Positions 38,149-50,623 of a DNA stretch of 64,000 bases are shown here, piece after piece. Every line of letters starts with the position of its first letter. The first letter of the stretch is position 1. Origin of the DNA: Escherichia coli (GTDB lineage: Bacteria > Pseudomonadota > Gammaproteobacteria > Enterobacterales > Enterobacteriaceae). The notes beneath the pieces are model-generated. The model saw only the letters and a program-made list of their open reading frames with translations, searched no databases and was not told the DNA's origin. The DNA lies in the NCBI RefSeq assembly GCF_001677475.2, contig NZ_CP015229.1. One strand, given 5' to 3'. The position numbers and the translations under genes were made by a program.

Positions 38149-38532
38149 ATGAAGCTGACCATCATTCGATTAGAAAAATTTAGCGACCAGGACCGGATTG
38201 ACCTGCAAAAGATCTGGCCGGAGTATTCCCCTTCCTCGTTACAGGTTGACGATAACCACCGTATCTACGCCGCGCGTTTTAACGAGCGCCTGCTCGCTGC
38301 CGTACGGGTAACCTTAAGCGGCACCGAGGGAGCACTGGATTCCCTGCGCGTGCGGGAAGTCACTCGACGTCGCGGTGTGGGGCAATATCTGCTGGAAGAG
38401 GTTTTGCGTAACAATCCTGGCGTTTCATGCTGGTGGATGGCGGATGCAGGCGTGGAAGATCGCGGTGTGATGACGGCGTTTATGCAGGCACTGGGATTTA
38501 CGGCACAGCAGGGCGGCTGGGAGAAGCGTTAA
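38149..38532 (+). CDS. panM: PanD maturation factor PanM/PanZ (GNAT fold)
   Basis: 127-aa ORF; divergent from livK. Confidence 0.85.
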   Translation: MKLTIIRLEKFSDQDRIDLQKIWPEYSPSSLQVDDNHRIYAARFNERLLAAVRVTLSGTEGALDSLRVREVTRRRGVGQYLLEEVLRNNPGVSCWWMADAGVEDRGVMTAFMQALGFTAQQGGWEKR

Positions 38533-38711
38533 TCGCTCTGTGTAAAAAGCAGTTCAATGGATTTGGTTGGGAAAAATAACGCATTTTCGTTTTCCCCGAC
38601 TAAAGGGATAAAGCCCAGCGATTTATAAAACGTATGGGCTTTTTCATTCAGCGCCTCGACAAAAAGACCGTGAATACCTACCGCTAAAGAGGCTGACCAG
38701 ACGACTTTCAT
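38529..38711 (-). pseudogene. C-terminal remnant of a GNAT-family (TacT/AtaT-like) tRNA-acetylating toxin; N-terminal ~100 codons absent
   Basis: 60-aa ORF whose sequence aligns by eye to the C-terminal third of GNAT toxins (e.g. TacT); lies in frame directly after the antitoxin stop. Confidence 0.5.
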
Positions 38712-38732
38712 GGCATGAGCAACAACTAGCGT

Positions 38733-39041
38733 TCAATCACCAGTTATCCCGGAAAACACCTCAAGTTGTTTTGCTGAGCGTTGTAATTTTTCGCCAGGTG
38801 AAGGCGATTTACCCAGTGCATCCATCACTCGCGCCCATGAAGTCTCATTAAGTATTATGCGCTGATGTTGTTCAATAATTTCTAACGCCTGCAGGTGAGC
38901 GCTACTCAATATAAACTGGCTTAAGGACTGTTGGGATATCGCAGCTGCCGTTTCAAACAAACATTTATCATCATCAGTTAAAGACAGCGCAATATGCTGA
39001 TTTTCAACAACAGACATAGTGATTTCCCTTCCACTCATCAA
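38733..39041 (-). CDS. DUF1778-family (TacA/AtaR-like) antitoxin, apparently intact; start may be an internal Met
   Basis: 102-aa ORF with the DUF1778 pattern (ALSLTDDDKCLFETAAAISQQSLSQFILSSA...); canonical position upstream of a GNAT toxin. Confidence 0.55.
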   Translation of the reverse strand: MMSGREITMSVVENQHIALSLTDDDKCLFETAAAISQQSLSQFILSSAHLQALEIIEQHQRIILNETSWARVMDALGKSPSPGEKLQRSAKQLEVFSGITGD

Positions 39042-39204
39042 ATGTACGAAATACTATCGAGTCTCCAGCATAACTCAATTGATCAATCTTTCTACAACCA
39101 TTTCGACAAACATAAAAAACCCGATGGCAGTGCAGCGCATCGGGCATTTTCATTTACGAGATTGCTGGCAAACTAGCTCACTTATTAATACGGGTACGGT
39201 TTTA

Positions 39205-39245
39205 CCCCTCACCCTAACCCTCTCCCCGAAGGGGCGAGGGGACTG
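39205..39245. repeat. GC-rich ~42-bp interspersed palindromic repeat, copy 1 (downstream of livJ)
   Basis: cccctcaccctaaccctctccccgaaggggcgaggggactg; near-identical inverted copy at 49421-49462; possibly a boxC-type element, family not confirmed. Confidence 0.5.
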
Positions 39246-39290
39246 TCCGAGCGCTTTTGAACTTTGTCATCAATCTGATTTATCTGACAA

Positions 39291-40394
39291 TTACTTCGCA
39301 TCGGTCGCCGTGCCGTTGGCGTGCCAGTCAAATACGCCGAACTCAAAGCCTTTCAGATCGCCTTTCTCATCCCACGTCAGCGGCCCCATCACCGTATCAA
39401 CCGAGTTCGCTTTCAGGTATTTGGCGATCTCCGCCGGATCGTCAGACTGATTCAGCCCCGCCTGCAAAGATTGCAGCGCCGCGTAGGTGGTCCAGACGAA
39501 TGCGCCGCTTGGATCCTGTTTTTTCGCTTTGATCGCGTCAACAATCGGTTTGTTCGCCGGAACCTGATCGTAGTTCTTCGGCTTGGTCACCAGCAGTCCT
39601 TCCGCTGACTCGCCCGCGATATTAGACAGCGAGACGTTAGCCACACCTTCCGGCCCCATAAACTGAGTTTTCAGCCCCGCCGCGCGCGCCTGACGCAGGA
39701 TCTGCCCCATTTCCGGGTGATAACCGCCGTAGTAAACGAAGTCGATATTCTCTTTCTTCAGGCGTGCCACCAGCGTCGAGAAATCTTTTTCCCCGGCGGT
39801 GATGCCATCAAAGAACACTACGTTAGCATTGCCTTTCTTCAGGCCGTCCTGCACCGCACGCGCCAGACCTTCGCCGTACTGTTGTTTGTCGTGAACGATA
39901 GCAATACGCTGCGGTTTCACTTTCTCAAGAATATATTTTGCCGCCGTCGGCCCCTGGTCGGAATCCAGGCCGGTGGTGCGCAGGATCAGCTGATAGCCAC
40001 GGGCAGTCAGCTCTGGCGCGGTTGCCGCTGGGGTGATCATTAAAATGCCTTCGTCTTCATAAATGTCAGACGCTGGCTGTGTTGATGAAGAACAGAGGTG
40101 ACCAATGACATATTTAATGCCGTCGTTAACCACTTTGTTCGCCACCGCGACGGCCTGTTTCGGGTCACAGGCATCGTCATATTTTACGATTTGCAGTTTA
40201 TTGCCTTTAATGCCGCCTTTAGCGTTGATATCCGCAACCGCCTGCTCTGCGCCGGTAAACTCCTGATCGCCGTACTGCGCAACCGGACCGGACATTGCGC
40301 CCACGACGGCGACTTTAATATCTTCTGCCAGAGCCATATTGCTGAATGCCAGCGCGATACATCCTGCCAGTAACGCTTTACCCTTTATGTTCAT
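39291..40394 (-). CDS. livJ: Leu/Ile/Val-binding periplasmic protein LivJ
   Basis: Track ORF 386 aa; conserved start [17 protein letters not shown] (signal peptide) gives 367 aa. Confidence 0.95.
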
Positions 40395-40665
40395 CCTGAG
40401 AATCCCCATTCTTCTGGTTATTACGTGTGTTGTGATGTTGTTGTTCAGCACTTTATTTCGTTTTATGCATGACTACCCGTGCTTTAGCAGCATACTCTGC
40501 TAAAACATACCCGATTTTTATGATATTGGAATAGCTATTTTGACAGTTTATTAACAATCTGCGTGGGGATTGGCGTTTTGCCGGAGGGGGAAACTGATTA
40601 TTGCAGAGGCCCAAAAAACAAAAACCCCGGATTCTCATCCAGGGTTCTCTGCTTAGTAGCGGAAA

Positions 40666-41520
40666 TTACGCTTCAATGGCAGCGCGAAGTTTTTTCATCG
40701 CGTTCTTTTCCAGCTGGCGCACACGCTCAGCGGAAACACCGTAACGGTCAGCCAGTTCCTGCAACGTGGACTTGTTGTCTTCGTCCAGCCAGCGCGCGCG
40801 GATGATATCCTGGCTACGCTCGTCCAGACCTTGCATCGCGTCGGTCAGACGGTTTGCCGCCTGCTCTTCCCAGTTATCATCTTCGATGCCGTCGGCAAAG
40901 TTAGATGATTTATCCTGCAGATAGAGCACCGGTGCCATCGGCTGGCTGTCGGAATCGTCGTCGGAAGACAGGTCAAAGGTCATGTCCTGTGCCGCCATAC
41001 GTGATTCCATCTCACGTACGTCTTTGCTGGTTACGCCCAGTTCACGGGCCACCATTTCGACTTCATCCTGGTTAAACCAGCCCAGACGCTGCTTGGTTTT
41101 ACGCAGGTTGAAGAACAGTTTGCGCTGCGCTTTGGTGGTCGCAACTTTGACGATACGCCAGTTACGCAGAACGTATTCGTGGATCTCTGCTTTGATCCAG
41201 TGAACGGCGAAGGAGACCAGGCGCACACCCACTTCCGGGTTGAAACGGCGCACTGCTTTCATCAGGCCGATGTTACCTTCCTGAATCAAATCCGCCTGTG
41301 GCAGGCCATAGCCCGCATAATTACGAGCAATATGAACAACAAACCGCAGGTGAGACAGGATCAGCGTTTTAGCTGCTTCCAGATCGCCATGGTAATGCAG
41401 CTTTTCAGCCAGCGCCCGCTCCTCGTCAGCCGACAACATCGGCCACGCGTTAGCTGCCCGGATGTAGGAATCCAGGTTGCCAACTGGGGCTAAAGCTAAA
41501 CTTTGCATTTTGTCAGTCAT
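40666..41520 (-). CDS. rpoH: Heat-shock sigma factor RpoH (sigma-32)
   Basis: 284-aa ORF; sigma-70-family regions 2 and 4. Confidence 0.95.
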
Positions 41521-41626
41521 TCAAATCCTCTCAATCGATATCTTCTGGCGCTTCAGTGGTAGCAACAACTGTGCCAGAGCTTAAGAGCAACGAGGTTATC
41601 ATTCACTGTTTTATCAGACCGTGATT

Positions 41627-41635
41627 TTATCCACA
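41627..41635. promoter_or_regulatory. DnaA box in the rpoH multi-promoter region
   Basis: Exact consensus 9-mer TTATCCACA about 110 nt upstream of rpoH. Confidence 0.5.
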
Positions 41636-41764
41636 AGTTCAATGCAAGCTTGTGAATAAATTACGCACAAAATGTGACATAGAGATGAAATACCGGGAAG
41701 AGACAACGGGGTCTCTTTCCCTGCTACGGAACCCATTGCAGGGAAAGAGTATAACACGCTTTTA

Positions 41765-42823
41765 TTATTCAGGCGTAAAGTGGCGTAAATGTTGTACCGT
41801 GGCAAGCCACGCTGCCACCCAGCCAATCATCGAGCATACCAGCAGCAATAGCAGGCATTCATCGAACGATAAACCATTGATATCAAACTTCGTTCCGAAA
41901 ACCTGTGCCACTTCCGCAACCGCCGATGACAATCGCAGTACCAGAATTTCTGACAAAATTAGTGACAACAATGCGCCAGAAAACCCCAGCAATGCGCCAC
42001 CATACAGGAACGGGCGCAGGATGAAACCATCCGTTGCACCAATCAGTTTCTGCACGTTAATGGAGTCACGACGAGCAAAGATACTCAGGCGTACACTGTT
42101 ACCGATGACGAGGAACACTGCCGCCACCATCAACACGCCGATCATCGCCGAAACGCGCCCGACCAGCCCGGTCAACGCCGCCAGACGGGCAAACCAGCTG
42201 TCATCCATCCGCACTTCGTCAATGCCGTTAATCTGCGTGATACGATCACGCAGCGTATTGAGTGATTCCGTCCCCTGAAAATCGAGTTTCGGGATCACCA
42301 CCGCCACTGCCGGAAGCGGGTTTTCTTCCAGCATATCCAGCGCACCACCAAAACCAGACCAGTTACGGAACTCGCCCAGTGCGTCTTCACGAGAAAGATA
42401 GTTCACTTTCTCCACGCCTTGCTCGGCCTGCAACTGTGCCACCACGCCCGCAGCGGCGTCATCGTCCAGCGTTTTTTGCAGATAAACAGTGATTTGCGGT
42501 GACGGATAATACTGCGTCGCCGCCTGATTAACGTTTTTGTACACCATATAACAGACGCTGGGCAGCGTCAGGGAGATGGCGATAACCATCACCGTTAAAA
42601 ATGTGGCGAACGGTTTGCTTTTCAGATCCTGCAATGCGCCGTGGAAGGCATAGCGCACCTGTTCGTTGAAAACGTTGGTTTTGCGATTAACCGGTTTTGG
42701 CGAGGATTTCGCGCGTTTCGGCGCGTTACGACCGCCGTCGCCAGAGCCGCCGACCGATTTACGGAAGCGATCAAGACGCCCGCCAAACTGCCGAATATGA
42801 TTGATTGCATCGCGCTTATTCAT
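41765..42823 (-). CDS. ftsX: Cell-division ABC-transporter-like permease FtsX
   Basis: Track ORF 361 aa; conserved start [15 protein letters not shown] gives 352 aa; overlaps the ftsE stop. Confidence 0.95.
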
Positions 42824-43484
42824 GGCCCACGCCTCCATGCAAGTGACCATCGCTCAGGGTGAGCATGCGATAGGAACGCCGCGAAATCAGGTTGATGTCG
42901 TGCGTTGCCATCAATACGGTTACCCCAACGCGGTTAAACTCTTCAAACAGACGTAAAATGCCTTCCGACAGCGCGTCGTCCAGGTTACCGGTCGGTTCGT
43001 CCGCCAGAAGTACCGCAGGCTTGTTCACCACCGCGCGGGCAATGCCAACACGCTGTTGTTCACCGCCGGAAAGCTGAATAGGAAAGTTCTTCGCTTTGTC
43101 CAGTAGCCCGACTTTATCCAGTGCCGCCGATACACGACGACGAATATCGTCACCGCTGGCACCGGCGATAATCAGCGGGATCGCCACGTTATCGTAGACA
43201 GTACGGTCCATCAGTAGATGGTGATCCTGGAAAATCATGCCAATCTGGCGGCGCAGAAACGGAACTTCACGGTTTTTCAGACGCGTGATGTCATGGCCGC
43301 TAAACCAGATTTTCCCGGCGCTGGGCCGCTCAATCCCACAGATCAGCTTCAGGAGGGTACTTTTCCCTGCGCCGGAATGACCGGTCAGAAACGCCATCTC
43401 ACCCGGCTGCATATGGAACGTAACGCCCTGCAGCGCCTGTCTCCCACCGAGATAAGCCTTGCTGACATGTTCAAAGCGAATCAT
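42816..43484 (-). CDS. ftsE: Cell-division ATP-binding protein FtsE
   Basis: 222-aa ORF; Walker [10 protein letters not shown] and signature LSGGEQQRV. Confidence 0.95.
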
Positions 43485-43486
43485 TG

Positions 43487-44983
43487 TTAATCCTCTCGGG
43501 CAAAAAGTGCCTCTATAAAGTCGTCCGCCTTAAACGGACGCAAATCCTCAATACGTTCGCCGACACCAATGTAGCGGATAGGGATACCAAACTGGTCAGC
43601 CACCGAGAAAATTACCCCGCCTTTCGCCGTGCCGTCCAGTTTCGTTAGCGTGATGCCGGTTAAGCCAACAGCTTCGTGGAACAGTTTGGCCTGGCTTACC
43701 GCGTTCTGCCCGGTGCTGGCATCAATAGTCAGCATAACTTCATGCGGCGCTTCAACGTCGAGTTTCTTCATCACGCGGACGATTTTCTTCAACTCTTCCA
43801 TCAGATGCGATTTGTTCTGCAGACGTCCGGCGGTATCGGCAATCAGGACGTCGATATTACGCGCTTTAGCGGCCTGAATGGCGTCGAAGATAACAGAGGC
43901 GGAATCCGCACCGGTATGCTGGGCAATCACCGGAATATTGTTGCGCTGACCCCAGACCTGAAGCTGTTCAACCGCTGCCGCACGGAAAGTATCGCCCGCC
44001 GCCAGCATCACCGATTTACCCTGCTGCTCAAACTGACGCGCCAGCTTACCAATCGTCGTGGTTTTACCCACACCGTTGACGCCCACCATCAGGATCACGA
44101 ACGGCGTTTTACCTTCAACATTCAGCGGCTCATCGACTTTCGCCAGAATCTCGCCCATCTCTTCTTTCAGCAGGCCATAGAGCGCCTCGGCATCACGAAG
44201 CTGCTTGCGGGATGCGCCTTCTGTCAGATTGGTGATAATTTTACGTGTGGTTTCCACGCCCACATCGGCGATCAACAGCTGTTCTTCCAGCTCTTCAAAC
44301 AGATCATCGTCGATTTTTTTACCGCGGAACAGGCTGATAAATCCGGAACCGAGATTTTCTTTAGTTTTTAACAGGCTGCGTTTCAGGCGCGCGAAGAAAC
44401 CTTCTTTGGTCGGTTTTTCCTGCTCCTGAGCGATTTCTTCTACCGGCTGCTCTTCTTCTGCCGGAGGAACCACCATCACCGCCTCTTCTGCCGCTTCAGC
44501 AGCCAGCGCCTGTGCTTCCAGCTCTTCGTCGGTGATTTCTTCTTTAGCCGCTTCTTCTTCCGCCGCTTCGACAATCTCTACGGTTTCCGCTTCGGCCTGC
44601 CACTCTTCTGGCGAAACCTCTTCGGCTTTGACGTCTTCCGGCAACGGCAGCTCTTCACGCTCGATAGCCACTGGCTCCGGCGTTTCTTCTACGACCAGTT
44701 CCGGCTGTGCAACGACTTCCGCTTCAGGCTGCGCTTTTTCACTTTCAGCAACCTGTTCAGTGACTTCCACAACGTCGGCAGCAAAAGTTTCCGCCTCAGC
44801 TTCAGTATGCGCCTGCGGCTGCTCTTCAACGGCGTGTTCAGAAGCCTTCACAGGCTCTTGCGCCTGAACGATTTCTTCTACAACCGGTTGTTCATTCTGA
44901 ACTTCTGTCTCTTTTTCCGGGGTCTGCTCTTTTTGACCAAAGCCCAGCCAGGAAAAAAAGCCACGTTTTTTTTCTTTCGCCAT
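43487..44983 (-). CDS. ftsY: Signal recognition particle receptor FtsY
   Basis: 498-aa ORF; acidic N-terminal domain and C-terminal SRP GTPase domain (GVNGVGKTTT). Confidence 0.95.
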   Translation of the reverse strand: MAKEKKRGFFSWLGFGQKEQTPEKETEVQNEQPVVEEIVQAQEPVKASEHAVEEQPQAHTEAEAETFAADVVEVTEQVAESEKAQPEAEVVAQPELVVEETPEPVAIEREELPLPEDVKAEEVSPEEWQAEAETVEIVEAAEEEAAKEEITDEELEAQALAAEAAEEAVMVVPPAEEEQPVEEIAQEQEKPTKEGFFARLKRSLLKTKENLGSGFISLFRGKKIDDDLFEELEEQLLIADVGVETTRKIITNLTEGASRKQLRDAEALYGLLKEEMGEILAKVDEPLNVEGKTPFVILMVGVNGVGKTTTIGKLARQFEQQGKSVMLAAGDTFRAAAVEQLQVWGQRNNIPVIAQHTGADSASVIFDAIQAAKARNIDVLIADTAGRLQNKSHLMEELKKIVRVMKKLDVEAPHEVMLTIDASTGQNAVSQAKLFHEAVGLTGITLTKLDGTAKGGVIFSVADQFGIPIRYIGVGERIEDLRPFKADDFIEALFARED

Positions 44984-45132
44984 TTGCGACTACACTCCTC
45001 GCTGTTGCTTCATGGCACAGCGTTAACGCTATGTACATAGCAGCTAAAAAAATGATGAAATAGTCTATCACTTAACTTAATTCACATCACCGCCTGCAAG
45101 TATGTGTTATCTGGCGGATTGAGCAATTTATC

Positions 45133-45729
45133 ATGAAAAAACCGAATCATTCCGGCAGCGGCCAAATCCGCATTATTGGCGGGCAGTGGCGAGGCCGTAA
45201 ACTCCCGGTTCCTGATAGCCCAGGTCTGCGCCCCACCACAGACCGCGTACGCGAAACGTTGTTTAACTGGCTGGCTCCGGTCATTGTTGATGCCCAATGT
45301 CTGGATTGCTTCGCCGGGAGCGGCGCGCTGGGGCTGGAAGCGTTATCGCGCTACGCTGCGGGGGCCACGTTGATTGAGATGGATCGCGTGGTTTCTCAGC
45401 AGTTAATTAAGAATCTGGCGACACTAAAAGCAGGCAATGCACGCGTGGTGAACAGCAACGCAATGTCATTCCTGGCGCAAAAAGGCACACCGCATAATAT
45501 CGTGTTTGTCGATCCACCGTTCCGCCGTGGCTTGTTAGAAGAGACGATAAATTTACTGGAAGATAACGGCTGGCTGGCTGACGAAGCCCTGATTTATGTC
45601 GAAAGCGAAGTCGAAAACGGTCTGCCCACTGTTCCGGCAAACTGGTCATTACATCGGGAAAAAGTGGCGGGTCAGGTGGCTTATCGGCTGTATCAACGCG
45701 AAGCACAAGGAGAAAGTGATGCTGATTAA
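45133..45729 (+). CDS. rsmD: 16S rRNA (guanine966-N2)-methyltransferase RsmD
   Basis: 198-aa ORF; SAM-binding motif (DCFAGSGALGLEALSR) and DPPF catalytic motif. Confidence 0.9.
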   Translation: MKKPNHSGSGQIRIIGGQWRGRKLPVPDSPGLRPTTDRVRETLFNWLAPVIVDAQCLDCFAGSGALGLEALSRYAAGATLIEMDRVVSQQLIKNLATLKAGNARVVNSNAMSFLAQKGTPHNIVFVDPPFRRGLLEETINLLEDNGWLADEALIYVESEVENGLPTVPANWSLHREKVAGQVAYRLYQREAQGESDAD

Positions 45730-45988
45730 TATTGGTCGTTTGTTAATGCTCTGCGTTTGGGGATTTTTAATCCTCAACCTGGTGCATCCCTTCCCACGCC
45801 CGCTGAATATTTTCGTTAACGTGGCGCTGATTTTTACCGTGCTGATGCATGGTATGCAGTTGGCGCTATTGAAATCCACCTTACCGAAAGATGGCCCGCA
45901 GATGACCACCGCCGAAAAGGTGCGGATTTTCCTTTTCGGCGTGTTTGAACTGCTGGTCTGGCAGAAGAAATTTAAAGTTAAAAAATAA
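45719..45988 (+). CDS. yhhL: Small inner-membrane protein YhhL (DUF1145)
   Basis: Conserved 89-aa product starts at internal Met (MLINIGRLLMLCVWG...) and overlaps the rsmD 3' end by about 11 nt. Confidence 0.8.
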   Translation: MLINIGRLLMLCVWGFLILNLVHPFPRPLNIFVNVALIFTVLMHGMQLALLKSTLPKDGPQMTTAEKVRIFLFGVFELLVWQKKFKVKK

Positions 45989-45990
45989 CC

Positions 45991-46350
45991 TTATTGTTCG
46001 CCTATAAAGCTGACAAAGCGCGTTCCTTTATAGCTCAGCGTACCTATATCGCCCACTGTCAGGGCGTGGTACTGCTGGGCGTCGAGGCGAAACGTCTGCT
46101 CCATTCCTCCGCTTTGCGGTTTGAAGCTTGCCTCATAGCGCATACTGGTGCCTGCCGGAGTCACTTCCTGCTGGCGCGAACGGCGATCGTTAATCGGTTT
46201 TTCCCGCTTGTTGCTCACCATCACCAGCTTTTGCTGGAGCGGCGCCATATCATTATCAGCTTTTTCCCGTCGTTGTTGCATAAAACGAAACGATGCGGCG
46301 ACGATGATTAAGCCAATGATAACAATAAAGAAAAGAGGTGGTTTACTCAT
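45991..46350 (-). CDS. yhhM: DUF2500 membrane-anchored protein YhhM
   Basis: 119-aa ORF with one N-terminal TM helix. Confidence 0.8.
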   Translation of the reverse strand: MSKPPLFFIVIIGLIIVAASFRFMQQRREKADNDMAPLQQKLVMVSNKREKPINDRRSRQQEVTPAGTSMRYEASFKPQSGGMEQTFRLDAQQYHALTVGDIGTLSYKGTRFVSFIGEQ

Positions 46351-46490
46351 CTTTATCCCTCATCGGAAAATGCGGAAATAAGCATACCCTGCCAGTTATG
46401 GTGTTGTCATCCGTCCACCCTCGCCACTAAACTGGAAGCAAGACCGTAGGCATTCCGCTTACGAAAAAATAACGAATTCAAGGAACTAAG

Positions 46491-47117
46491 ATGCTTTGGT
46501 CGTTTATCGCTGTCTGTCTTTCCGCATGGCTATCTGTGGATGCATCGTATCGTGGGCCAACCTGGCAACGCTGGGTGTTTAAACCGTTAACCCTTCTTCT
46601 CCTGCTGTTACTGGCCTGGCAAGCGCCGATGTTCGACGCCATTAGCTATCTGGTGCTGGCAGGGCTGTGCGCCTCACTGCTGGGCGATGCGCTAACCCTG
46701 TTGCCACGTCAACGTCTGATGTACGCCATCGGCGCGTTTTTCCTCTCGCACCTGCTGTACACCATCTATTTCGCCAGTCAGATGACGCTCTCTTTCTTCT
46801 GGCCTCTGCCACTGGTGTTGCTGGTTCTGGGTGCGCTGTTACTGGCGATTATCTGGACGCGGCTGGAAGAGTACCGTTGGCCTATCTGCACGTTTATCGG
46901 CATGACGCTGGTGATGGTGTGGCTGGCAGGTGAACTTTGGTTCTTCCGTCCGACCGCTCCGGCGCTCTCTGCGTTTGTTGGCGCTTCATTGCTGTTTATC
47001 AGTAACTTTGTCTGGCTGGGTAGCCACTATCGCCGCCGCTTCCGGGCAGATAACGCGATTGCTGCGGCCTGCTACTTTGCCGGTCATTTCCTCATCGTCC
47101 GCTCGCTGTATCTCTGA
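46491..47117 (+). CDS. yhhN: YhhN-family inner-membrane protein
   Basis: 208-aa polytopic ORF upstream of zntA. Confidence 0.85.
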
Positions 47118-47124
47118 TAAAACT

Positions 47125-47156
47125 TGACTCTGGAGTCGACTCCAGAGTGTATCCTT
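47125..47156 (+). promoter_or_regulatory. zntA promoter with ZntR (MerR-family) operator
   Basis: -35 ttgact and -10-like tatcct separated by about 20 bp, spanning a perfect 22-bp palindrome actctggagtcgactccagagt. Confidence 0.65.
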
Positions 47157-47190
47157 CGGTTAATGAGAAAAAACTTAACCGGAGGATGCC

Positions 47191-49389
47191 ATGTCGACTC
47201 CTGACAATCACGGCAAGAAAGCCCCTCAATTTGCTGCGTTCAAACCGCTAACCACGGTACAGAACGCCAACGACTGTTGCTGCGACGGCGCATGTTCCAG
47301 CACGCCAACTCTCTCTGAAAACGTCTCCGGCACCCGCTATAGCTGGAAAGTCAGCGGCATGGACTGCGCCGCCTGTGCGCGCAAGGTAGAAAATGCCGTG
47401 CGCCAGCTTGCAGGCGTGAATCAGGTGCAGGTACTGTTCGCCACCGAAAAACTGGTGGTTGATGCCGACAATGACATCCGTGCACAAGTTGAATCTGCGG
47501 TGCAAAGAGCAGGCTATTCCCTGCGCGATGAACAGGCTACCGACGAACCACAAGCATCACGCCTGAAAGAGAATCTGCCGCTGATTACGCTAATCGTGAT
47601 GATGGCAATCAGCTGGGGTCTGGAGCAGTTCAATCATCCGTTCGGTCAACTGGCGTTTATCGCGACCACGCTGGTTGGGCTGTACCCAATTGCTCGTCAG
47701 GCATTACGGCTGATCAAATCCGGCAGTTACTTCGCCATTGAAACCTTAATGAGCATAGCCGCTATTGGTGCGCTGTTTATTGGCGCAACGGCTGAAGCTG
47801 CGATGGTGTTGCTGCTGTTTTTGATTGGTGAACGACTGGAAGGCTGGGCCGCCAGCCGTGCGCGTCAGGGCGTTAGCGCGTTAATGGCGCTGAAACCGGA
47901 AACCGCCACGCGCCTGCGTAACGGTGAGCGTGAAGAGGTGGCGATTAACAGCCTGCGCCCTGGCGATGTGATTGAAGTCGCCGCAGGTGGACGTTTGCCT
48001 GCCGACGGTAAACTGCTCTCACCGTTTGCCAGTTTTGATGAAAGCGCCCTGACCGGCGAATCCATTCCGGTGGAGCGCGCGACGGGCGATAAAGTTCCTG
48101 CAGGAGCCACCAGCGTAGACCGTCTGGTAACGCTGGAAGTGCTGTCAGAACCGGGTGCCAGCGCCATTGACCGGATTCTGAAACTGATCGAAGAAGCCGA
48201 AGAGCGTCGCGCCCCCATTGAGCGGTTTATCGACCGTTTCAGCCGTATCTACACGCCCGCGATTATGGCCGTCGCCCTGCTGGTAACGCTGGTGCCGCCG
48301 CTGCTGTTTGCCGCCAGCTGGCAAGAGTGGATTTATAAAGGGCTGACGCTGCTGCTGATTGGTTGCCCGTGTGCGTTAGTTATCTCAACGCCTGCGGCGA
48401 TAACCTCCGGGCTGGCAGCAGCAGCGCGTCGTGGGGCGTTGATTAAAGGCGGTGCGGCGCTGGAACAACTAGGTCGTGTTACCCAAGTGGCGTTTGATAA
48501 AACCGGTACGCTGACCGTCGGTAAACCGCGCGTTACCGCGATTCATCCGGCAACGGGTATTAGTGAATCTGAACTGCTGACACTGGCGGCGGCGGTCGAG
48601 CAAGGCGCGACGCATCCACTGGCGCAAGCCATCGTACGCGAAGCACAGGTTGCTGAACTCGCCATTCCCACCGCCGAATCACAGCGGGCGCTGGTCGGGT
48701 CTGGCATTGAAGCGCAGGTTAACGGTGAGCGCGTGTTGATATGCGCTGCCGGGAAACATCCCGCTGATGCATTTGCTGGTTTGATTAATGAACTGGAAAG
48801 CGCCGGGCAAACAGTAGTGCTGGTAGTACGTAACGATGACGTGCTGGGTATCATTGCATTGCAGGATACTCTGCGCGCCGATGCTGCAACTGCCATCAGT
48901 GAACTGAACGCGCTGGGCGTCAAAGGGGTGATCCTCACCGGCGATAATCCACGCGCAGCGGCGGCAATTGCCGGGGAGTTGGGGCTGGAGTTTAAAGCGG
49001 GCCTGTTGCCGGAAGATAAAGTCAAAGCGGTGACCGAGCTGAATCAACATGCGCCGCTGGCGATGGTCGGTGACGGTATTAACGACGCGCCAGCGATGAA
49101 AGCCGCCGCTATTGGGATTGCAATGGGCAGTGGCACAGACGTGGCCCTGGAAACCGCCGACGCAGCATTAACCCATAACCACCTGCGCGGCCTGGTGCAA
49201 ATGATTGAACTGGCACGCGCCACTCACGCCAATATCCGCCAGAACATCACCATTGCGCTGGGGCTGAAAGGCGTTTTCCTCGTCACCACACTTTTAGGGA
49301 TGACCGGCCTGTGGCTGGCGGTGCTGGCAGATACGGGTGCGACGGTGCTGGTAACAGCGAATGCGTTAAGATTGTTGCGCAGGAGATAA
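47191..49389 (+). CDS. zntA: Zn(II)/Cd(II)/Pb(II)-translocating P-type ATPase ZntA
   Basis: 732-aa ORF; N-terminal metal-binding GMDCAAC, CPC motif, DKTGTLT phosphorylation site, GDGINDAP. Confidence 0.95.
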   Translation: MSTPDNHGKKAPQFAAFKPLTTVQNANDCCCDGACSSTPTLSENVSGTRYSWKVSGMDCAACARKVENAVRQLAGVNQVQVLFATEKLVVDADNDIRAQVESAVQRAGYSLRDEQATDEPQASRLKENLPLITLIVMMAISWGLEQFNHPFGQLAFIATTLVGLYPIARQALRLIKSGSYFAIETLMSIAAIGALFIGATAEAAMVLLLFLIGERLEGWAASRARQGVSALMALKPETATRLRNGEREEVAINSLRPGDVIEVAAGGRLPADGKLLSPFASFDESALTGESIPVERATGDKVPAGATSVDRLVTLEVLSEPGASAIDRILKLIEEAEERRAPIERFIDRFSRIYTPAIMAVALLVTLVPPLLFAASWQEWIYKGLTLLLIGCPCALVISTPAAITSGLAAAARRGALIKGGAALEQLGRVTQVAFDKTGTLTVGKPRVTAIHPATGISESELLTLAAAVEQGATHPLAQAIVREAQVAELAIPTAESQRALVGSGIEAQVNGERVLICAAGKHPADAFAGLINELESAGQTVVLVVRNDDVLGIIALQDTLRADAATAISELNALGVKGVILTGDNPRAAAAIAGELGLEFKAGLLPEDKVKAVTELNQHAPLAMVGDGINDAPAMKAAAIGIAMGSGTDVALETADAALTHNHLRGLVQMIELARATHANIRQNITIALGLKGVFLVTTLLGMTGLWLAVLADTGATVLVTANALRLLRRR

Positions 49390-49395
49390 GGCAAA

Positions 49396-49423
49396 CCGAT
49401 CGCAACATTGAGCGCGATCGGTC
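49396..49423 (+). terminator. Hairpin immediately downstream of zntA
   Basis: Perfect 9-bp stem accgatcgc/gcgatcggt with about 10-nt loop; no strong U-tract, so terminator function is uncertain. Confidence 0.35.
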
Positions 49424-49462
49424 CCCTCGCTCCTCTGGGGAGAGGGTTAGGGTGAGGGGAAA
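49421..49462. repeat. GC-rich ~42-bp interspersed palindromic repeat, copy 2 (inverted; between zntA and tusA)
   Basis: gtcccctcgctcctctggggagagggttagggtgagggga; reverse complement nearly identical to the copy at 39205-39245. Confidence 0.5.
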
Positions 49463-49490
49463 AGGCGGCATCGAAGCCAATCAGCCCCCA

Positions 49491-49736
49491 TCAACCGCCT
49501 TTGCGAATCAAATAACGATAAGGCAGTCCATCCGTCTCTTTAGCAACCAGTTCGTGTTCCATAAAGGTACAAAACCCAGGAATATCGCGGGTAGTGGCCG
49601 GATCGTCGGCGATAATCAGCAACGTTTCGCCAGGCTGCATATTGCGCACGGTTTTGCGCACCATCATCACCGGTTCCGGGCAGCGCAGGCCAAGCGCGTC
49701 GAGTGTGTGGTCAGGGCTGGAAAAGAGATCGGTCAT
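49491..49736 (-). CDS. tusA: Sulfur-carrier protein TusA
   Basis: 81-aa ORF with the CPxP active-site motif ([12 protein letters not shown]). Confidence 0.95.
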
Positions 49737-49957
49737 TTTCTTCTCATCACTTAAAAAAACGGCGCTAGTTTACGCCCTGTGAGTCCGTAAGCAAACCAGG
49801 TTAACGATTGCGTGAAAATTAACCATTGCATTGTCAACGTAAAGCAGTATCATGCGGCGGCTCGAAAAAAGGGTAAGAACGTTATTTAATCAAGGTAAAA
49901 TAGCGTGTCGTACGTATTGGGTTCCCTCACCCCAATGGTTAATCAAAAAGGTACAAT

Positions 49958-50623
49958 ATGAACGTTTTCTCGCAAACTCAACGCTATAAGGCGTTGTTCT
50001 GGTTATCGTTATTTCATCTTCTGGTGATCACCTCCAGTAACTATCTGGTTCAGCTTCCGGTCTCCATTTTTGGTTTTCATACCACCTGGGGCGCGTTTAG
50101 CTTTCCGTTTATCTTTCTCGCTACTGACCTGACCGTGCGTATTTTTGGCGCGCCGCTGGCTCGTCGTATCATTTTTGCGGTAATGATCCCCGCATTGCTG
50201 ATCTCCTACGTCATCTCATCGCTGTTTTATATGGGGTCATGGCAGGGATTCGGCGCACTCGCCCACTTCAACCTGTTTGTCGCCCGTATCGCCACCGCCA
50301 GTTTCATGGCCTACGCGCTGGGGCAAATCCTCGACGTGCACGTTTTTAACCGCCTGCGTCAGAGTCGTCGCTGGTGGCTGGCACCGACGGCTTCCACCCT
50401 GTTTGGTAACGTCAGCGACACGCTGGCCTTCTTCTTCATAGCCTTCTGGCGTAGCCCGGATGCCTTTATGGCTGAACACTGGATGGAAATCGCGCTGGTC
50501 GATTACTGTTTCAAAGTGTTAATCAGTATCGTTTTCTTCCTGCCAATGTATGGCGTATTACTCAATATGCTGTTGAAAAGACTGGCAGATAAATCCGAAA
50601 TCAACGCTTTGCAGGCGAGTTAA
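49958..50623 (+). CDS. yhhQ: Queuosine-precursor transporter YhhQ
   Basis: 221-aa polytopic ORF. Confidence 0.85.
   Translation: MNVFSQTQRYKALFWLSLFHLLVITSSNYLVQLPVSIFGFHTTWGAFSFPFIFLATDLTVRIFGAPLARRIIFAVMIPALLISYVISSLFYMGSWQGFGALAHFNLFVARIATASFMAYALGQILDVHVFNRLRQSRRWWLAPTASTLFGNVSDTLAFFFIAFWRSPDAFMAEHWMEIALVDYCFKVLISIVFFLPMYGVLLNMLLKRLADKSEINALQAS

Follow-up and report, generated by a model that had tools for sequence, protein, structure and literature searches.

BoxC repeats downstream of livJ and between zntA and tusA in Escherichia coli, and an association of BoxC with DUF559 gene ends

Introduction

The BoxC repeat of Escherichia coli reportedly takes its name from Bergler et al. 1992, and the name PIT element is said to come from Hoyne et al. 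2000. Among other repeat families, REP elements have a GCCGGATGCGGCGTGAACGCCTTATCCGGCCTAC-like palindrome as their consensus and are tied to RAYT, a tyrosine transposase of the IS200/IS605 type, and the RSA and ERIC/IRU repeats have consensus units of 152 bp and 127 bp, respectively. For BoxC, we know of no enzyme.

The motif CCCTCNCCC-N3-6-GGGNGAGGG-N3-GGGNGAGGG defines the TMECO elements, which were stated to be identical to the earlier BoxC and PIT element (Holder et al. 2015, PMC4666352), and HPG1 and HPG2, the G-quadruplex/hairpin groups of Kaplan et al. 2016 (PMC5100583), are again the same element as BoxC. In K-12, 23 strict TMECO copies have been catalogued, the G.A “mismatch” form being the commonest among the K-12 copies; inverted doublets occur at five loci, and 18 loci divide into 7 convergent, 9 tandem and 2 divergent ones, with no fixed orientation of the repeat (Holder et al., PMC4666352). 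Here, we describe two such sequences in a 64-kb window of E. coli DNA (“the window” being the whole stretch analysed) and compare them with copies in other genomes. Locus numbers with the prefix L are our own.

Results

Two inverted BoxC copies in the window

A sequence-only reading of the window had pointed to a segment at 39205–39245 and its reverse complement at 49421–49462, and both are present. The 22-mer CCCTCACCCTAACCCTCTCCCC occurs exactly at 39206–39227 (+) and at 49437–49458 (−); the 64-kb window holds no further match at up to three mismatches, and 100 dinucleotide-preserving shuffles gave 0 matches. The aligned 37-nt cores of the two copies, referred to below as sites A and B, show about three differences: two in the loop and one C-to-T change in the C-rich block of site B.

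Both copies have the BoxC layout, in which a C-rich block (CCCTCGCCC) is followed by two G-rich blocks (GGGAGAGGG and GGGTGAGGG) within a core of ~37 bp. By regular expression, site A matches the consensus exactly on the minus strand (39206–39240), and site B matches with one mismatch, the C-to-T change in block 1, its K-12 orthologue being an exact match (L002, 13185–13219). Both are type A copies, with TTA as the second loop (the alternative in the family is type B, with CCG), and both carry the G.A “mismatch” form. Their placing is intergenic, A lying between livJ and an antitoxin ORF and B between zntA and tusA. The K-12 zntA/tusA copy is catalogued as TMECO no. 16 (3608684–3608719; PMC4666352) and as HPG1 no. 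40 (Kaplan et al. 2016, PMC5100583), and this catalogue identity excludes a convergent consensus match for site B. Judged by their sequence, both are BoxC copies and hence an ordinary, already known finding; the earlier suggestion of a small interspersed element, possibly of the boxC type, agrees with the consensus fit and with the cataloguing of site B in K-12. The features of both sites are collected in Table 1.

Table 1. Features at sites A and B (window coordinates), RNA 3′ ends at BoxC hairpins (Term-seq, K-12 coordinates) and further DUF559 loci
Feature	Position or locus	Strand	Reading, basis or distance
BoxC core, site A, type A “mm”	39206..39240	−	reads CCCTCGCCC-CTTCG-GGGAGAGGG-TTA-GGGTGAGGG
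Extended shared segment round site A	39151..39281	−	alignment, megablast
Terminator-like hairpin, 7-bp G+C stem, 11-nt loop, then TTTTTT	39114..39150	−	sequence and RNA fold of 39105–39250
Antitoxin ORF and truncated ataT toxin remnant	38529..39041	−	Pfam, RefSeq annotation of L001
BoxC core, site B, type A	49424..49458	+	reads CCCTCGCTC-CTCTG-GGGAGAGGG-TTA-GGGTGAGGG
Adjacent hairpin, 9-bp stem (ACCGATCGC...GCGATCGGT)	49395..49422	+	RNA fold; abuts site B
Term-seq end, primary end of lldD	3781065	+	3 nt past BoxC hairpin
Term-seq end, yjbD transcript	4231270	−	3 nt past BoxC hairpin
Term-seq end, after cstA	632098	+	~10 nt past BoxC hairpin
Term-seq end, fepB leader	624567	−	~11 nt past BoxC hairpin
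Term-seq end, ppiC terminator read-through	3959467	−	4 nt past block 1/2 hairpin
Further enteric DUF559 loci with gene-end BoxC	L133, L135, L142		DNA read

A 55-nt query found BoxC in 5,425 of 5,426 complete E. coli genomes, at a median of 19 places per genome (range 2–34), so that the two sites are not unique. An Rfam scan of 38400–50200 at E ≤ 1 returned chance-level matches only, Rfam having no family for BoxC; the only match at site A was Antizyme_FSE, with 22 bits against a gathering score of 40 (E 0.63). Of the families proposed for comparison, BoxC fits and REP does not: neither site resembles the REPs of the K-12 panZ–livJ spacer or those of locus L003 (described below). Given the 37-bp unit and the exact BoxC match, membership in the RSA or ERIC families need not be invoked.

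Across 39291–50623, the ORFs livJ, rpoH, ftsX, ftsE, ftsY, rsmD, yhhM, yhhN, zntA, tusA and yhhQ have the order, strands and lengths that they have in K-12, and the match in ORF positions and lengths places the window in the E. coli chromosome near 3.6 Mb. The same comparison bears on the idea that the pair is a footprint of past rearrangement, that is, a scar of an inversion or another rearrangement between the two sites. The copies are indeed inverted and 10.2 kb apart, but the livJ-to-tusA ORFs are unchanged relative to K-12, which has only site B, and the family has ~20 copies per genome in both orientations, making such a scar extremely unlikely. What stands of the rearrangement idea is local: the intergenic segment that contains site A has been replaced as a whole.

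Site A belongs to a replaced panZ–livJ spacer

Site A lies in the 3′ untranslated region of livJ, 45 nt past the stop codon of this minus-strand gene, whose end is at 39291, and its G-rich strand is the sense strand of the livJ mRNA. Similarity to other copies extends well beyond the core: ~88 nt (39192–39279) resemble BoxC copies that follow rluF, gabT and argE in other strains, and 131 nt round the site share 84% identity with the argE-downstream copy. Since these flanks are common to other BoxC loci, site A arose by copying of a segment longer than the core.

The panZ–livJ spacer measures 758 bp in the window, as compared to 187 bp in K-12, where it contains REP elements and no BoxC. In the window, a truncated ataT, an antitoxin ORF, a hairpin followed on the livJ strand by a T6 run and the BoxC together replace the K-12 REPs, and the replacement starts directly at the livJ stop codon. 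The antitoxin ORF (38733–39041) is an intact orphan of the TacA/AtaR type (PF08681 TacA1, E 1.2e-17), called by RefSeq at 285 nt in the near-identical locus L001. The hairpin is downstream of the BoxC and is likely the livJ terminator; its loop is longer than 8 nt, for which reason a consensus terminator scan did not detect it. Among the 5,426 complete genomes, BoxC is joined to livJ in 9 and the 758-bp spacer occurs in 10. Site A has no K-12 orthologue, and these comparisons show that it came into a rare lineage together with the replaced spacer.

Site B is old and nearly fixed

Site B separates the convergent genes zntA (+, ends 49389) and tusA (−, ends 49491), with its G-rich strand in the sense of the zntA mRNA and its C-rich strand in that of tusA. 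The C-to-T change that distinguishes its block 1 from TMECO no. 16 is also found in other strains. With a 391-bp zntA–tusA query, 5,145 genomes aligned over at least 80% of its length. Several strains depart from this arrangement: in STLEFF_47 (L003), a REP cluster is inserted directly before the BoxC, in THO-006 block 3 is mostly gone, and the SMS-3-5 spacer has no BoxC, with REP elements and an extra ORF in its place. Across 56 strains, TMECO no. 16 was unchanged in 14 and mutated in 42 (Holder et al., PMC4666352). Site B is shown by these data to be old and nearly fixed, yet decaying in some strains.

In SMS-3-5 (L005, 273–581), the extra ORF encodes a hypothetical protein of 102 aa, and the last tusA codons read RKSG-stop as compared to RKGG-stop.

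It had been claimed that each copy sits next to another hairpin. This holds for site B, where the hairpin abuts the core, and not for site A, where the nearest one (39114–39150) is 55 nt off. The hairpin at site B is not part of the repeat, since its left arm is replaced by the REP cluster in STLEFF_47.

BoxC and REP spacers as alternative alleles

At panZ–livJ, gabT–gabP and argE–ppc, the BoxC spacer of one strain is an allele of a REP/BIME spacer in K-12, and at all three loci the replaced segment begins at the stop codon of the upstream gene (window 38533–39290, L128 and L126). A constant orientation of BoxC relative to the upstream gene was considered; it held for site A and its three closest paralogues and failed in the K-12 table. 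The mixed arrangement and orientation of the K-12 loci agree better with copies being tolerated in promoter-free spacers than with a fixed regulatory role.

The K-12 rluF–yjbD spacer (L131, 3228–3359) contains a degenerate BoxC, with GGGAAAAGGG as block 2, which the published catalogue of 23 K-12 copies does not include and which carries a Term-seq 3′ end.

RNA hairpins, termination and 3′ ends

The sequences had been described as a 42-bp imperfect palindrome. They are not a simple palindrome: with one C-rich block followed by two G-rich blocks, pairing is limited to ~10 nt per arm and can take either of two registers. The predicted RNA folds have energies of −23.7 and −24.4 kcal/mol, with block 1 pairing to block 3 via a G.U pair, and the hairpin z-scores are modest (−1.6 and −2.5), as any similarly G+C-rich sequence folds well.

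The proposal that each copy is a Rho-independent terminator of its upstream gene draws on the presence of a G+C-rich hairpin shortly after the stop codon at each site. Against it, neither copy is followed by a T-run on either strand (the flanks read GTAAAACC and GAAAAGGC), a consensus promoter and terminator scan found no match at either site, and downstream of site A there is another hairpin, which does have a T-run. The published assays are likewise negative: as summarised in PMC4666352, Hoyne and Maher report no promoter or terminator activity for PIT elements, and Term-seq data have the ilvC transcript reading through BoxC to a downstream terminator (PMC7815308). The terminator function is therefore abandoned here as very unlikely.

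RNA 3′ ends were taken from the curated Term-seq set of Adams et al. 2021 (PMC7815308, supplementary file 1), in which the listed sequences span −50 to +10 round each 3′ end, as verified on the ppiC terminator entry. Mapping of 3′ ends had been proposed as a check, and its outcome is divided: K-12 ends lie at five BoxC loci (Table 1), a raw tally, and none is listed on either strand at the zntA–tusA copy (PMC7815308). BoxC hairpins can carry RNA 3′ ends, and we infer a stop to exonucleases as the simplest mechanism.

These ends also bear on the possibility that the two copies are selected RNA elements of 3′ untranslated regions, whose hairpin would set or protect the 3′ end of livJ, zntA or tusA and tune expression as REP does. 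The two copies are located in 3′ regions that are transcribed, site A between the livJ stop codon and the terminator; the K-12 ends fall at the hairpin base and include the primary end of lldD, and the published assays covered promoter and terminator activity, not RNA stability. However, the zntA–tusA copy is without a listed K-12 end, the K-12 copies are inconsistently oriented to the upstream gene, more than 99% of E. coli genomes lack site A and have REP-bearing spacers there instead, and copies decay or vanish without obvious consequence. On balance, we consider such selection unlikely.

Behaviour at the DNA level

The G-rich strand of both window copies displays a G3-N3-G3-N3-G3-N3-G3 motif. 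[quoted passage not shown] Holder et al. proposed that replication or repair stalls at a transiently formed triplex, G-quadruplex or hairpin, so that the locus becomes a rearrangement hot spot. The canonical motif, the variability of both window loci between strains and the allelism of BoxC- and REP-bearing spacers at three loci are in line with this proposal. On the other side, the triplex was undetected by in vivo DMS footprinting and did not form in duplex DNA in vitro (PMC4666352), the gene order is unchanged round both copies, and the variability may reflect repeats of any kind gathering in dispensable spacers, where REPs fill the same slots. As an explanation of the two window copies, a DNA-level action is rather doubtful.

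BoxC copies at the ends of DUF559/YcjD genes

A scan of species-representative genomes with the TMECO consensus gave, among the matches listed, three organisms, mostly Mitsuaria, with no E. coli copies among them. In the betaproteobacterium Mitsuaria chitosanitabida, at least 142 distinct copies form a sharply bounded unit of ~50 nt (L014–L125) that shares with E. coli BoxC both its three blocks and the T/G alternative in block 1. Across the scanned loci, mostly of Mitsuaria, close BoxC pairs are inverted in 31 of 34 cases. Inverted doublets in Mitsuaria are often 46–200 nt apart. Two paralogous DUF559 proteins of this organism (139 aa; PF04480, E 1e-39) are bracketed by BoxC, and a third DUF559 gene is bracketed likewise (L049, L050 and L052).

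At all 12 DUF559 loci read as DNA, a BoxC of the genome's own variant overlaps or abuts a gene end. The set comprises E. coli (two lineages), Enterobacter (two assemblies), Klebsiella, Kluyvera, the three Mitsuaria paralogues and three metagenome contigs. In most cases, the DUF559 stop codon is covered by a BoxC in C-rich orientation, which is translated as a terminal PSPRPSP (general form PSPxPSP), and outside the enterics an additional BoxC in G-rich orientation sits just upstream of the start codon. Enteric DUF559 loci have a type A BoxC 11–180 nt further downstream, the type to which both window copies belong.

E. coli K-12 itself has a DUF559 gene, ycjD (L132, 1908–2261), 167 nt upstream of TMECO no. 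9, which we take to be the founding BoxC next to fabI/envM. In K-12, ycjD ends in a decayed BoxC in C-rich orientation, formed by its last codons; in another E. coli lineage (L141) this gene-end BoxC is intact and lies 49 nt from a type A copy. In Enterobacter, Klebsiella and Kluyvera DNA, a full BoxC covers the DUF559 stop codon. Two metagenome contigs (L137 and L138) have a G-rich-orientation BoxC at the gene start and a C-rich-orientation one over the stop codon; contig L140 has the gene-end BoxC and only the tail of an upstream one, at which the contig starts, and contig L139, which ends soon after the stop codon, has the upstream copy only, in G-rich orientation.

The association is also visible in proteins. 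Among the best 120 YcjD homologues, which come from Enterobacter, Klebsiella, Kluyvera, Lelliottia, Leclercia, Phytobacter, Franconibacter and other genera, nearly all end in PSPRPSP, which is coded by CCC TCA CCC CGG CCC TCT CCC, the complement of a type B BoxC. A BoxC-like peptide is found in 48% of 146 diverse representatives of DUF559 50%-identity clusters, as compared to 2% of enterobacterial ORFs and 6.6% of G+C-rich ORFs used as controls; the strict form of the motif lies 19–25 residues past the RFWN motif in 27 of 35 cases. These results show that BoxC is consistently associated with DUF559 gene ends.

In Enterobacteriaceae, the DUF559 gene occupies three different loci, gene and repeat thus moving together. 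The genome table of Holder et al. lists 70–143 copies of the motif for Enterobacter, 1–38 for Klebsiella and some for Shigella, and lists none for Salmonella, Citrobacter, Cronobacter and Yersinia (PMC4666352); no Salmonella protein appears among the top YcjD homologues. The DUF559 fold is a Vsr-like PD-(D/E)XK fold, as indicated by a sequence match to PDB 3hrl (E 1.5e-28), and the published fold classification groups DUF559 with Vsr and the homing endonuclease I-Bth0305I.

Three further features were seen at these loci. In K-12 (L132, 1836–1965), the last ~23 nt of ycjD before its BoxC (GGAGACGGTGCTGGAGAATATTC) recur downstream and are followed by BoxC fragments; this recurrence, between ycjD and TMECO no. 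9, suggests a local duplication or recombination at the repeat. In Klebsiella quasipneumoniae (L135, 3364–3549), three tandem units of ~66 bp, each with a half-BoxC (CCCTCTCCCTCAGCGAGAGGGAG), are placed downstream of DUF559 between the gene-end BoxC and the type A BoxC. Just upstream of the E. coli ycjD start there is a perfect 15-bp inverted repeat, CACCTCATTCTGACA ... TGTCAGAATGAGGTG, which is not BoxC (L132, 2262–2328; L141, 2431–2500).

Discussion

Overall, sites A and B are BoxC copies and very probably passive members of the repeat family; the default position, that no function is selected at these particular sites, is probably correct. BoxC may persist where promoters stay undisrupted, mainly in spacers downstream of genes. 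In RNA, for example in the livJ, zntA and tusA 3′ untranslated regions, its C-rich block could pair with either G-rich block to form a hairpin of about −24 kcal/mol, which would hold an RNA 3′ end, probably by stopping 3′-to-5′ exonucleases as REP hairpins do, and would not terminate transcription. In single-stranded DNA, the blocks could fold into a hairpin, a triplex or a G-quadruplex, and the turnover of loci carrying them is faster than that of other spacers. A nuclease-like gene of the DUF559 (YcjD) type, with BoxC copies at its ends, would be the likely source of BoxC.

The finding of the two copies itself adds little, as BoxC has been catalogued three times in K-12 and the question of its function is 30 years old. 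Two aspects go further. Public Term-seq ends at BoxC hairpins make the question of an effect on mRNA directly testable at named loci, and the presence of BoxC at DUF559/YcjD gene ends offers a candidate enzyme for a repeat family without one and, conversely, a candidate substrate for a very large protein family (~25,000 DUF559 clusters at 50% identity).

By analogy with REP and RAYT, BoxC could be the cognate flanking repeat of the DUF559 family, and its dispersed copies would then descend from, and may be spread or maintained by, the nuclease unit. We regard this as a tentative proposal, somewhat short of probable. Any action of a DUF559 enzyme on BoxC is likewise an inference; that it might recognise a G.T-mismatched BoxC hairpin, as Vsr recognises T/G mismatches, is speculation. 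In the open-access literature, we found no report of the BoxC–DUF559 arrangement and no paper that connects BoxC or REP-like repeats with DUF559, YcjD or Vsr-like proteins.

Comparison with known systems

When compared with BoxC/PIT/TMECO/HPG1 as described, the window copies are alike in the three blocks, the TTA loop, the intergenic placing and the copy number, and nothing essential differs. With intrinsic terminators they share a G+C-rich stem-loop downstream of a stop codon, but BoxC is without a U-tract. REP/BIME elements are similar in being short G+C-rich hairpin repeats that gather downstream of genes and have RNA 3′ ends at the hairpin base; their sequence is unrelated, however, BoxC has a third block duplicating the G-rich arm, and its ~20 copies contrast with several hundred for REP. 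The arrangement at DUF559 genes resembles REP/RAYT. It has in common with REPIN–RAYT systems, where repeat doublets accompany a flanked transposase gene present in single copy, that the repeats often form inverted doublets and a small gene is flanked by the genome's own repeat variant. The proteins differ, DUF559 having a Vsr-like nuclease fold and RAYT being an HUH tyrosine transposase, and it is peculiar to the BoxC–DUF559 arrangement that one of the repeats overlaps the stop codon and is translated as PSPxPSP.
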